Part shown: positions 1-49,550 of the stretch, piece by piece | How the letters are laid out: the number at the start of each line of letters is the position of its first letter | Numbering within the stretch: the stretch's first letter is position 1 | Assembly: GCA_019058315.1 (NCBI GenBank) | Contig: JAHPZH010000006.1 | Span: 32,001-96,000, forward strand | DNA: 64,000 nt | Source of the DNA: Candidatus Helarchaeota archaeon | Lineage (GTDB): Archaea > Asgardarchaeota > Lokiarchaeia > Helarchaeales > RDOG01 | Reading direction: 5' to 3' | Position numbers and translations under genes: made by a program | The notes under the pieces: generated by a model | Databases searched by the model: none | Told to the model about the DNA's origin: nothing | The model's input: only the letters and a program-made list of their open reading frames with translations

Positions 1-304
1 TCTCCATTTTTAATCATTTTTTTTCTTTCAATTAAATCCTCTTCGTCGAAACGTTTCCAAAAATCATCTATATCAAAGATTCCCCAGTTTCTAAGATATT
101 CATCAAATTTCCTTCCAGAACGCCAAAAGGTGTGAATTTCTTGTTTGGTAAGCTCTTTTTTAGTTAGAATAAAAACAATCTTTGTAATTATTACGTCTAG
201 AATTTCAAAGAAATTCTTGGGAACGTGGATGAATACACTTTAGAAAAATATTTTCATAAATTTGTGCCATCCAAATCAAAAAGAAGTCCGATGTTATTTT
301 TCAT
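1..304 (-). CDS. HAD-superfamily hydrolase, intron-containing (exon1 304..262, exon2 232..<1); 3' end runs off the window
   Basis: ATG at 304 gives MKNNIGLLFDLDGT. Removing 233..261 continues IIHVPKNFFEILDV..., open to the window edge. HAD motif I DxDGT. Not in the ORF track. Confidence 0.85.
233..261 (-). other. 29-nt BHB mRNA intron in the HAD gene
   Basis: Minus strand TGGATG-GCAC-AA^A-TTTATGAAAATATTTTTCTAAA-GTGT-AT^T-CATCCA: 6-bp outer helix, 4-bp central helix, two 3-nt bulges. Contains an in-frame TGA. Confidence 0.88.
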
Positions 305-6127: not shown

Positions 6128-6476
6128 TTAAGTTCCTCGTCTTCTATATTTACACCCTTTTATGGGACAAAATCTATATTGAGGAGCAGAAGATCCGGCA
6201 ACTGGTCTTTTAATAATCCATCCAGAAACCCAACCATGATGTGGACAGTAATATTTTTCTCTATCTTTTAAATTTTCATCTTGTTCGTCTTGTGTAACTT
6301 TAAAATTACATACATCATGTGTTTGTTTATATTTTTCATTTACTGGACATACATTCCCTTTACGTTTAATTAAATTTACGCGGGCTATCCTCAGAATTTA
6401 TACATCCAGTACAATCTACTGGAATTTCTTTCACCTCATGTTCATATTTAATTATTGAAAGATTGTCTTTATACAT
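6128..6476 (-). CDS. Small Cys/His-rich (putative Zn-binding) protein, intron-containing (exon1 6476..6376, exon2 6359..6128; 110 aa from ATG 6476, start uncertain)
   Basis: Spliced product ...PVDCTGCINSEDSPRK-GNVCPVN...YYCPHHGW...RFCPIKGCKYRRRGT*. Exons total 333 nt. Not in the ORF track. Confidence 0.7.
6360..6375 (-). other. 16-nt BHB mRNA intron
   Basis: Minus strand CCC-GCGT-AA^A-TTTAATTAA-ACGT-AA^A-GGG; in-frame TAA; inner stem is only about 2 bp. Confidence 0.7.
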
Positions 6477-30935: not shown

Positions 30936-31982
30936 ATGGAATCTAATAAAACATTTTTTTTAACACTCAGTGGTGAAAACATAAATTTATCTAAATTTGA
31001 AATATTATCCCTTTTTAAATCTAAAAATACTAAATTTTTTAATGTAAAACTAATTGATCGTCTTTTAATTCTCTCCTCTAAAAAGAATATTTCAAATTAC
31101 ATTGCTTCTAGAGCAGCCCTTACACATGACATTTCCGAATTATCGATGGTAAGTTCTATTGAGGAGAAGGATATTATAGAATCTTTAAAAAGGATAGATT
31201 TAAATAAGATAGTTGAAAATAGAAAATCTTTTGCGGTAAGAATTCAAAAAATTGGACTTAAAGAAATTAATTCTGAATATTTCGAAAGATTAATTGGAAA
31301 AATTATTCTTAATAAAATTGAAAAAAAGATAAAGGTTGATTTATTAAACCCGGATGTTTTATTCTACGGAATTTTTGTTAAAGACAAATTTGTTTTTGGT
31401 ATTAACAATTCACAAAAAATAAGAAGCAATCTTAAGTTAAATTCACTTAAATCTAGACCGTTTTTTCATCCAAGTGCATTAAATCCAATATTAGCTAGGG
31501 TTATGGTTAATTTATCTCAAATCAAAGAAACTGATATTTTTCTTGATCCCTTTTGTGGAACTGGAAGTATTTTGATTGAGGCTTTTTTAGTTGGATGCAA
31601 TAGACTAATTGGAATAGATATCAATCATAAAATGATAAATGGTGCAAAAAGAAATCTTATAAAATTTGGAGTAAAAAATATGGAATTATTATTAAGTGAT
31701 TCTAATCATATTCCGCTAAGATCAATATCTGGTGTAGCAACCGATCCACCATATGGTAGAAGTAGTTCTACATATAAAAAACCATTAATTCACTTAATAG
31801 AAAATTTCTTTTTAGAAATTAGTGATTTAATTTTAAAAAATCGGTTAATTACTTTAGCGTTGCCATCCCAAATCAGGATAGACGAGTTGATAGATAATTT
31901 TTATTTTGAAATTATAAATGAATTTAATCAATATATTCATTCTTCGTTAACTAGAAGAATATATGTAATTCGAAAAAAATAA
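30936..31982 (+). CDS. THUMP-domain tRNA guanine-N2 methyltransferase (Trm11/Trm-G10-like)
   Basis: THUMP domain plus RPFFHP, DPFCGTG, TDPPYG. Confidence 0.88.
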
Positions 31983-31996
31983 GAAATGAAATAAAT

Positions 31997-32925
31997 ATGG
32001 AAATAATTTTTTTAGGAACATCAGGGACAGTTCCAACTGTTTCACGCAGTTTGCCTGCAATAATAATAAAAAGAGAAAATGATTTTTTGCTTTTTGATTG
32101 CGGTGAAAAAAACTAATTAATTGTAGTTTTCACTAAGGCACACAACTTCAATTTAGGAAAGCAAAAATCAGTTTTTTTAAAATTAATAAGATTTTTCTTT
32201 CACATTTACATGGCGATCATATTACTGGGTTACCTGGTCTAATTATGTCATTAGCTTTAGGTAAAAGAGAGAAAACTCTTACAATTTATGGACCTAATGG
32301 GATTAAAGGATTTATAAATAAAGTTATTGATACAATGCATTTTGATTTAACTTATCCTTTAGAAATAGTTGAAATAGCTGGAGAAGAAAATTTTGAATTT
32401 TTAAATTATAAAATTACTTGTTTTCCTTTAGAACATAGGATATTTACCTTAGGATATGTTATTGTAGAAAAACCAAAGGCAAAATTCGATGTTGAAAAGG
32501 CGAAGTCATTAAAAATTCCAAAAGGTCCTTTATGGGGAAAATTGAAATCAGGTGAAAGTATTCATTTAAATAATGGGAGAGTTATCCAACCTTCCCAAGT
32601 TTTAGGAAATATAAAACCTGGAAAAAAAATTTTATATTGCACAGATACTCGTCCTACAATTAAGACAAAAAATTTAAGCAAGAACGCAGATTTACTCATT
32701 CATGATGGTATGTTTGAAGAGAATCTAAAAGAGTTCGCTACAATTGGAGGACATTCAACAGTAGTTGAAGCCGCAGAACTGGCTAAAGATTCGAAAGTAA
32801 AAAAATTAATCTTATTCCATATAAGTTCTAGATATGAAAATAATAATTCTATTTTAGAACTTCAAGCAAAAAAAATTTTTCCTAATTCATTCATAGCTGA
32901 AGATTTTATGAGAATTTTAGTTTAA
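31997..32925 (+). CDS. rnz: Ribonuclease Z, intron-containing (exon1 31997..32107, exon2 32137..32925; 299 aa)
   Basis: [14 protein letters not shown]...LFDCGE|GTQ...SHLHGDH..G, exosite GPLWG, CTDT, HST, HIS. The ORF track finds only the C-terminal part. Confidence 0.93.
32108..32136 (+). other. 29-nt BHB mRNA intron in rnz
   Basis: TGC-GGTG-AA^A-AAAACTA-attaattg-TAGTTTT-CACT-AA^G-GCA; in-frame TAA. Confidence 0.92.
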
Positions 32926-47398: not shown

Positions 47399-49550
47399 TT
47401 AAAAAAAATCGGCTTTTGGTATTTCAGCTTTTCTACCTTTTTTTATACGAATGTCTGAAATTATTTTTTGAGCGCTATCATAGGAAATAAATTCCCAATG
47501 AGAAAAAACTGTTTGCCAGAATGCTTGTCCTGCAGTTTTTGAACGAATATCAGTAGATAGATTAAATGATTCTTTAACTGGAATTAGACCAGTAATGTAT
47601 GAATAAGAATCTTTTTGTTCAATATTTAGAATTTTGCTTTTCCTTTGTAATAATAAAGCTGTAATAACTCCTATTAGATTTGTAGGAACTTGGATTTGAA
47701 TCTTATAAATTGGCTCAAAAATAGTAGGTTCTGATTTTAAAAAAGCGCTGTAAACCGCTCTTTTACCCATTAACATAATTTGAAGCGGATCGACTTCTAA
47801 AGTATTTTTATCAATTTTTAATAAATGGATATTTATTTGCAATCCTTTTATTGGTTCTTCGCATAAAGGTCCTGCATTTAGAGCCATTTTAATACCCTTT
47901 ATAATAATTTCTTTGATTTTATCATCAATTTCTTGGCTTAAATCATTAATAATTAGATTATTATTGTAATCTATTGCTAGAATCTTCTTATGTTTTAAAA
48001 TTTCTTTAATTCTTTCTTCGTTTATTGGTTCTACTGAAAGTTTGATTTGATTCAAATTATTTTGACTTAAAGTTGAAATTATTGGGCTCTTTATTTTAAT
48101 TCCTTCTCTGTAGACTACAATTGGATCGGACATTAATATGTCAATCCCAAAATCTTTTATTTCATTAGCAATGATTTCTAGATGTAATTGTCCGATTCCA
48201 GAAATCAAATATTCCCCTGTATCTTCATTAATATCGATTTTTATATCGGGATCGTTTATTTTTATTTTATTTAAAATATCTAGCATTTTAGGTAATTCCT
48301 TTGGATGTTTGGGTTCAATAGAAACTGTTATAACAGGATCTGATACATATTTGATATTTTCAAATGGGTCAATTATTTCTTTAAACTCACTATTAGTTAA
48401 TGTTTCTCCAACTATTGCCTCTGAGAGGCCTATAAAAGCTCCAATATTACCTGCTGTAAGAGAATTAACAATTTCTCTTTTATGTCCCATTGAAATGAAA
48501 ATTTTTAAAACTCGATTAATGTCTTTCGCAGTTAATAAATAGACTTCATCACCTGAATTAATGGTTCCAGAAAATATACGTCCTATTGATATTTTTCCTA
48601 CATGTTTGTCAAATAATATCTTATGAATACAAATAATTAATGGTCCATTTTCATTACATTTTTGCATATTTTGTGCTAAAGCTGAATTTAAATCGCCTTT
48701 CCAAATTTTTTTAATTCTATAAGTTTGTGCAATTTTAGGACTTGGCAAATGATTAATTATCATATTTAATATACATTTATCTAAAGGTAGAATTTCACTT
48801 AATATCTCAATTTTGTTTATTCCATTTTTATAATAATTAAAAATATTATCAAACTTTAGTTTCTTATTTTTCATGATATTTAATGTAAAACCCCAACTAG
48901 GATATAAAGCGCATCCAAATCCTACATTATTCATTTCTGGAATTATTTTCCATTTATCTTTAAATTCATTTTCAGCATAAAGTTCAATATAATCGTTAAA
49001 TTTATCTATAATATTTTGAAAATAATTTTGAATTTCATTAGAGTTTAATTTTAATTCTTTTATTAAACGATCAACTTTATTTATATACAGAATTGGTTTT
49101 ATACGTTCTTGCAAAGCTTGTTTTGTTACAATTTCTGTCTGAATTTGGCATCCTTCAACTGCATCTACAACTACAATGGCACCATCAATTGCTCTTAACG
49201 CTCTAGATACTCTGGCAGTTAAATCCACTTAGTCTATAAAAATAATTTTATTTTTATATATGACCTGGAGTATCTATCAGATTAATAATGAATCTCTCAT
49301 TAGCTATTTGATACAATAATGAAATATTTGCAGTCTTAACTGTAATTCCTCTTTTTTGTTCAATATCTAAATAATCCAGAGCCCGAAGAGAACCTGCTAA
49401 ATTTGAAGATATTACTTTCCCTAATGCTAAAAGGCTATCAGTTAAAGTAGTCTTTCCATGGTCTATATGCGCTATTATACCAATATTGCGTATGTTGTCC
49501 TTTTGTTTCATTGTTTCTAAAATTTCATTAATTTTTTTTGATTTTACCAT
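47399..49550 (-). CDS. fusA: Elongation factor 2 homolog, intron-containing (exon1 49550..49260, exon2 49228..47399; 706 aa)
   Basis: AHIDHGKTT, RGIT, spliced DTPGH|VD, NKVD, GQLHLE, EPIY; diphthamide HRG motif absent. Confidence 0.92.
49229..49259 (-). other. 31-nt BHB mRNA intron in EF-2
   Basis: Minus strand CCA-GGTC-AT^A-TATAAAAATA-aaat-TATTTTTATA-GACT-AA^G-TGG; in-frame TAA. Confidence 0.93.

Follow-up and report, generated by a model that had tools for sequence, protein, structure and literature searches.

Introduction

Archaeal splice sites share a geometry in which an outer helix is followed by a 4-bp helix with a 3-nt bulge at each end, one on either strand, and each bulge is cut after its second nucleotide. 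The same arithmetic puts tRNA introns at position 37/38. Such BHB introns in archaeal tRNAs and rRNAs are cut by the splicing endonuclease EndA, as Marck and Grosjean reportedly set out in 2003, and a BHB intron in the cbf5 pre-mRNA of Crenarchaeota is said to have been described by Watanabe in 2002 and by Yoshinari in 2006. The HAC1/XBP1 mRNA is cut by IRE1 and joined by tRNA ligase, and its unconventional splicing serves regulation. The cbf5 intron is found in Desulfurococcales and Sulfolobales, and by 2009 archaeal pre-mRNA splicing had been confirmed only for this gene, all other cases being merely predicted (Yokobori 2009, PMC2738675).

Here we describe a 29-nt insert in rnz, the gene for the tRNA 3′-end nuclease RNase Z, in an Asgard genome of 5.8 Mb (12 contigs, estimated completeness 94%). 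Judged by its sequence, this gene joins the cbf5-type mRNA introns as a new case; the open-access literature that we searched yielded no report of a BHB intron in rnz or in any Asgard mRNA. The resemblance to crenarchaeal cbf5 is close. In both, a short, lineage-specific BHB intron interrupts the protein gene of an RNA-maturation enzyme and leads to its annotation as a truncated or split gene, and removal is by tRNA splicing endonuclease and ligase (predicted for rnz). The cbf5 hosts have a two-subunit EndA, and such an enzyme is plausible here. The differences lie in the gene and the phylum, in the splicing of rnz being predicted from sequence, and in the setting: the cbf5 hosts are hyperthermophiles, whereas this assembly has 30% GC and its DNA is found in sediment metagenomes. 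Unlike in the cbf5 case, the rnz intron is also one of several mRNA introns in its genome, whose own cbf5 is uninterrupted.

With the BHB introns of archaeal tRNAs and rRNAs, the insert shares an hBHBh′ arrangement that is identical in helix length, bulge size and cut position, a similar size and the same enzymes. Unlike those introns, it sits in an mRNA, the exonic halves of its fold double as codons of a conserved catalytic motif, and its excision restores a reading frame.

A reading frame split within DCGE|GTQ

The two parts of rnz lie on the forward strand of the window, by which we mean the whole 64,000-nt stretch of DNA that was analysed. Exon 1 (31997..32107) comprises 37 codons, from the initial M to FDCGE (ending GAT TGC GGT GAA), and matches positions 1-37 of the RNase Z model TIGR02651. 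Exon 2 (32137..32925) begins with GTQ (GGC ACA CAA) and contains 262 codons and a stop. By itself it scores 302.8 bits on TIGR02651 against a cut-off of 292.95, matching positions 37-300 including the flexible-arm region, and with exon 1 covering positions 1-37 every model position is accounted for. Between them lie the 29 nt of the insert (32108..32136, forward strand). Their number is not a multiple of three, and their removal brings both parts of rnz into one frame, giving a spliced product of 299 aa, a short-form RNase Z, whose alignment with uninterrupted orthologues runs through DCGE|GTQ without gaps. The original prediction had placed the insert in this motif, upstream of HxHxDH, and the sequence agrees: HLHGDH, the metallo-beta-lactamase motif II, is read in the translation at 32203..32220 (forward strand), downstream of the intron and before the first in-frame ATG.

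Unspliced, the exon 1 frame continues after GAA with AAA AAC TAA. It thus stops after two codons of the insert, as had been predicted, at the in-frame TAA at 32114-16, and the open frame ends there (31997-32116). In the exon 2 frame, a TAA at 32134-32136 stands immediately 5′ of the exon, and the first in-frame start is the ATG at 32245. Since this TAA precedes exon 2 and this ATG follows HxHxDH, the reading frames predict that an active RNase Z is impossible from unspliced mRNA. The 226-aa ORF reported by gene callers (32245..32925, forward strand) lacks HxHxDH and is a truncated artefact of the overlooked intron.

Upstream of rnz on the same strand is a THUMP-domain SAM methyltransferase (30936..31982; Pfam THUMP and UPF0020; TIGR01177, Trm11-Trm14-like), a putative tRNA m2G methyltransferase whose score of 265.9 bits on TIGR01177 is under the model cut-off of 316.55. 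Its end is separated from the start of rnz by 14 nt, and the expected position of rnz directly after a methyltransferase gene was thereby borne out. The gene order NOG1 GTPase, PRPP synthase, THUMP methyltransferase and rnz is common to the window and two related loci (L045 and L046).

A BHB fold at the frame-restoring junction

The hBHBh′ fold was derived by hand from the established geometry, and its pairs were then counted. An outer helix of 3 bp pairs UGC (32099-32101) with GCA (32138-32140). The central helix has 4 bp, one of them G-U, between GGUG (32102-05) and CACU (32131-34), and is flanked by two bulges, AA|A (32106-08) and AA|G (32135-37). Inside them, a 7-bp inner helix pairs AAAACUA (32109-15) with UAGUUUU (32124-30) and closes an 8-nt loop. 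The exonic 5′ half of the motif (32099..32107, forward strand) thus ends with the bulge nucleotides AA at 32106-07, where a cut is predicted after 32107. The intron itself begins with the bulge nucleotide A32108 and, beyond its hairpin and CACU, ends with the bulge nucleotides AA at 32135-36, so that the third nucleotide of the 3′ bulge, G32137, opens exon 2. The cuts predicted after the second nucleotide of each bulge coincide exactly with the junction that restores the frame.

The motif exceeds chance expectation: when the 61-nt region was shuffled 20,000 times, a motif of equal quality arose anywhere in 4 of the shuffles and at these cut sites in none. A caveat comes from thermodynamics. 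The minimum free energy (MFE) fold of the isolated 76-nt region (32085-32160) is a slipped, continuous 8-bp helix at -10.8 kcal/mol (z = -0.41), and the BHB conformation, at -7.8 kcal/mol, is 3 kcal/mol less stable; runs of A and U readily permit such slippage. The MFE folds of relatives come nearer to the BHB form, yet they too slip at the A/U runs. The earlier identification of the insert as a BHB intron is nonetheless upheld at the level of sequence, by the canonical hBHBh′ arrangement at the frame-restoring positions and by comparative data that agree with it.

Splicing enzymes and further BHB introns

Two proteins in the genome match PF01974. The first, of 184 aa, is of catalytic type with Tyr, His and Lys in place, and its best PDB match is 3P1Z_B of A. 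pernix, with further crenarchaeal catalytic-subunit matches to 3AJV_B, 2CV8 and 2ZYZ_B. In the second, a paralogue of 201 aa, the catalytic His aligns to Pro/Ser. Their genes are at G000 C12:5149-5703 and C1:330844-331449. A two-subunit EndA, composed of a catalytic alpha and a His-less beta-like paralogue, is plausible from these sequences. RtcB is intact (582 bits). ARAGORN found 26 tRNA genes in the 5.8-Mb genome without intron search and 42 with it; many of the tRNA genes probably carry introns, in some cases at non-canonical sites, and the difference between the two counts suggests that EndA is indispensable irrespective of rnz. This tRNA count fits the intron-rich tRNA sets of some Asgard classes (PMC11291895; bioRxiv 10.64898/2026.10.13.758758).

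Equivalent introns interrupt other genes. On the minus strand of the window, a 31-nt BHB intron (49229-49259) splits DTPGH|VD of EF-2, with a GGUC/GACU central helix and an inner stem of 10-11 bp. Its flanking exons cover positions 2-96 and 98-513 of the aEF-2 model, and joined they give an ORF of 734 aa. In rrp41, a 32-nt BHB intron (G000 C10:138945-138976, minus strand; loci L049/L050) has TIGR02065 matches of 3-77 and 64-230 on either side. Because such introns split EF-2 and rrp41, mRNA splicing must work efficiently in this organism.

Two further candidates were identified on the basis of junction peptide and BHB geometry only. One is a 29-nt insert in a HAD hydrolase (window 233-261, minus strand), directly after DLDGT, with 4/4 pairs in the central helix, 6 bp in the outer and 4 bp in the inner helix; its downstream exon runs past the window start. 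The other has 33 nt and an inner stem of 9 bp and interrupts an HTH-CBS regulator (G000 C5:499169-499201, plus strand), with the junction ...GVSQSLIAR|IETGSVD.... A weak BHB-like candidate of 16 nt in a Cys-rich ORF (window 6360-6375, minus strand) has 4/4 central pairs, an outer helix of 3 bp and an inner helix of only 2 bp, and is without family support.

In the same genome, cbf5 and rnhB are uninterrupted. The parallel once drawn with a cbf5 intron therefore does not hold as a feature of this organism and stands as an analogy with Crenarchaeota. A genome-wide census passed 134,000 strict BHB motifs through an ORF-fusion filter. The candidates that remained were no more numerous than in controls whose junction had been moved by 1-2 nt (248 against 229-265 in one comparison, 20 against 12-23 in another). 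The AT-rich ends of genes swamp the signal, and the census yields no total of mRNA introns for the genome.

The rnz, EF-2 and HAD introns (window 32108, 49259 and 261) all adjoin invariant catalytic motifs, namely DCGE|GTQ, DTPGH|VD and DLDGT|. This could be an ascertainment bias or a reason for persistence. Codons of an invariant motif that serve as exonic halves of the BHB (TGC GGT GAA | G GCA in rnz) may favour the survival of such introns, since they keep the exonic strand of the pairing from drifting.

Splicing dependence and the question of a gate

Very probably, the insert in rnz is a true mRNA intron whose splicing is obligatory, and the sequence context supports a dependence of rnz expression on the tRNA-splicing enzymes EndA and RtcB. 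The original prediction went further and had EndA gate RNase Z in a way that could coordinate steps of tRNA maturation. According to this proposal, intron removal would be rate-limiting and tuned, and RNase Z output would track EndA/RtcB capacity, coordinating tRNA 3′-end processing with tRNA splicing. The need for splicing to obtain an active enzyme speaks for it, as do the conserved placement of rnz behind a THUMP tRNA-type methyltransferase, at a distance of 14 nt, and the retention of the intron over dS > 1.

A precedent for the gate exists in the unconventional splicing of HAC1/XBP1 mRNA. There, too, a short mRNA intron is removed independently of the spliceosome by cuts in stem-loops and RtcB-type ligation (IRE1 with tRNA ligase/RtcB), and its removal is needed for active protein. 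The splicing of HAC1/XBP1, however, is conditional and relies on a dedicated stress-sensor nuclease, whereas EndA here is a housekeeping enzyme, and the analogy extends to the gating idea only.

Several observations weigh against such tuning. Equivalent introns in EF-2 and rrp41, and candidates in the HAD hydrolase and the HTH-CBS regulator, are not specific to tRNA processing, and since the genome carries them in genes of mixed functions, rnz is not singled out. Any intron that interrupts a needed gene would be expected to keep its structure, regulated or not, and the ARAGORN counts (26 against 42 tRNA genes) suggest that EndA is indispensable anyway. Of the predicted gate, the dependence of the enzyme on splicing thus stands, but nothing in the sequences points to a regulatory coordination, and we consider a tuned, rate-limiting intron unlikely. 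We hold the same doubt about a wider version, to which we give about one chance in ten. In this version, set in a lineage where many tRNA genes seem to be interrupted and several housekeeping mRNAs (rnz, EF-2, rrp41) contain BHB introns, the rnz intron would be a working checkpoint, and the output of the tRNA 3′-end nuclease and of translation factors would be set by EndA/RtcB capacity. If this checkpoint reading were true, a protein-only layer of archaeal mRNA splicing would act as a global regulator in an organism closely related to eukaryotes. Constitutive splicing is the likelier of the two modes.

Selection on the spliced frame

A second alternative is that rnz is a decaying pseudogene, disabled by the insert, with its function supplied from elsewhere. 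It would account for the truncated 226-aa product being all that gene callers return, and a premature stop in one relative points the same way. In that relative (loci L047/L048, apparently one sample assembled twice; 91% identity), TAA replaces Leu at about codon 240. In L047 this TAA (L047:1020-1043) lies about 60 codons before the end of rnz and 33 nt from the contig end. We recorded it as counter-evidence; a strain-level defect or pseudogene is possible, as is a contig-end error.

Decay is largely refuted by the selection data. In pairwise comparisons of intron-bearing lineages, dN/dS of the spliced frame, exon 1 included, is 0.09-0.23 at dS 0.3-1.8. Exon 1 taken separately gives about 0.1-0.3 in comparisons of the more diverged intron-bearing lineages; in the closest pair the changes are too few for a judgement. 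The insert and its pairing are, moreover, maintained at the same site across lineages at dS about 1.

As for a substitute, a TIGR02651 search of the genome (estimated to be 94% complete) found no second true rnz. It did find two RNase Z-like paralogues of 258 and 249 aa (G000 C3:339339-340106 and C5:1063245-1063988), which could be counted in favour of decay, as could the estimated incompleteness. In both paralogues, however, the flexible arm (TIGR02651 positions about 152-201) is missing, and their scores of 159 and 187 bits fall short of the cut-off, 293; in relatives, arm-less paralogues similarly stand beside a full rnz. The check for an intact copy elsewhere and for decay of this one thus found no other true rnz and, at dN/dS 0.09-0.23, a gene that is not decaying. 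We regard a pseudogene as very unlikely.

Conservation of the insert

The insert is found at the same site in every related contig that we fetched, with a length of 29 or 30 nt. These separately assembled contigs, from ENA, JGI, Logan and NCBI, include four further diverged metagenomic lineages (loci L041-L046; 73-83% protein identity). Among database proteins, each of the six closest relatives (70-100% identity over the aligned part) is annotated in truncated form: four have 226 aa, and the other two are shorter because of a contig end or a premature stop. The next match is an intact protein of 302 aa at 53% identity.

In the alignment, all 14 base pairs are standard in each of the 5 distinct sequences. 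One lineage (L044) has GGCG/CGCC for GGUG/CACU: a synonymous exon change of GGU to GGC is compensated by an A-to-G change in the intron, turning U-A into C-G, and a second change turns the one G-U pair into G-C. The hairpin loop, by comparison, differs in almost every lineage. Covariation statistics are weak, as there are 5 distinct sequences and one compensatory pair, and an equally good result arises in 91 of 500 shuffles. In the 30-nt variants, the extra U must bulge out or shift the inner helix.

These data bear on translational recoding, in which ribosomes would bypass the 29 nt or frameshift over them with no RNA splicing. The A-rich run GAAAAAAAC could look slippery, and the cbf5 introns were initially confused with frameshifting (PMC2738675). 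Recoding would nevertheless have to pass a stop two codons into the insert and bypass 29 nt, and the features that are conserved are those of a BHB (the 4-bp helix, the two 3-nt bulges and the compensatory change) rather than a pair of take-off and landing codons. The 29- and 30-nt variants would also need different frame shifts, yet they give the same product if spliced at the BHB. On this evidence recoding is highly improbable.

Among the sequencing runs listed as containing this DNA, run X1, from a sediment metagenome, is flagged as a possible source of the genome, and none is an RNA run. An assembly or sequencing artefact, for which one might point to the 12-contig assembly, is already refuted and of negligible probability, as the same insert occurs in runs of two other studies and in the separately assembled ENA, JGI, Logan and NCBI contigs. 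It was found in contigs of three other runs (X2, X3 and X6) at ~92-98% identity, one of which has an extra T in the U-run, and no contig of these runs joins across the insert. The sequences thus confirm the insert as a genuine feature.

Distribution and origin

The intron occupies a narrow clade. Proteins from intron-bearing genes share 73-83% identity with that of the window. Identity to the closest proteins from intron-less genes does not exceed 49%, and for one of these, from the family's only other species, it is 46%. The clade has one named member, which carries the label Candidatus Helarchaeota. In 40 relatives belonging to the same class, each full-length rnz match among the matches listed has an uninterrupted frame, and the best 150 matches of a phylum-wide rnz search, in which 223 genomes had a match, all begin at model position 1-2. 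The proposed survey of the intron across Asgard rnz genes accordingly places it in this narrow clade, with uninterrupted frames in the listed full-length matches of the class.

Related loci sought in genome contigs were all distant rnz genes, at 34-40% identity. JGI metagenome contigs were scanned for the spliced junction that an intron-less allele or cDNA would show, and the only match was an unrelated rnz of 32% identity that uses the same codons by chance. The genome holds no other copy of the intron sequence on search, and it thus gives no sign of a repeated mobile element. On these comparisons the simplest history would be one gain of the intron in the ancestor of the clade.

In a separate Asgard family (f25), 0 of the 16 genomes in the sample searched has a standard rnz match. 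Three of its genomes (G096, G129 and G156; loci L060-L063) carry open frames of 570-580 aa whose N-terminal part matches RNase Z positions 1-151, and from their length and match these might be long-form (ELAC2-like) RNase Z.

A proposed model of rnz splicing

The evidence is best explained by a genuine BHB intron of the rnz pre-mRNA, gained once and spliced constitutively with no dedicated regulation needed, and we consider this account likely on the present sequence comparisons. In the folded transcript, the outer and central helices would be built by the final 9 nt of exon 1 and the initial 4 nt of exon 2 together with the 3′ end of the intron. The splicing endonuclease, probably the catalytic alpha with the His-less beta-like paralogue, would then cut after A32107 and A32136. 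RtcB would ligate the exons to GGUGAA|GGCACA, with a predicted spliced junction of ...GCGGUGAA joined to GGCACACAA, and the product would encode the 299-aa short-form RNase Z. The intron would have been gained in the ancestor of the narrow clade; with rnz being one of several genes with mRNA introns in this genome, constitutive splicing seems most likely. Selection for splice competence would maintain the intron structure, and a dedicated regulatory role would be unnecessary.

Beyond experimentally confirmed cbf5, rnz would be a second kind of gene with such an intron, now in Asgard archaea, backed by the conserved site, the compensatory change and strong purifying selection. Public annotation truncates essential genes in these genomes, and the close relatives of this rnz are called as fragments without the catalytic motif. 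The rnz region, of about 75 nt, offers a small and well-defined substrate with which to follow the action of Asgard EndA and RtcB on mRNA. EndA-type splicing of mRNAs looks broader than assumed, and the rnz, EF-2 and rrp41 introns together make routine mRNA splicing in Asgard archaea a question that RNA-seq can test directly.
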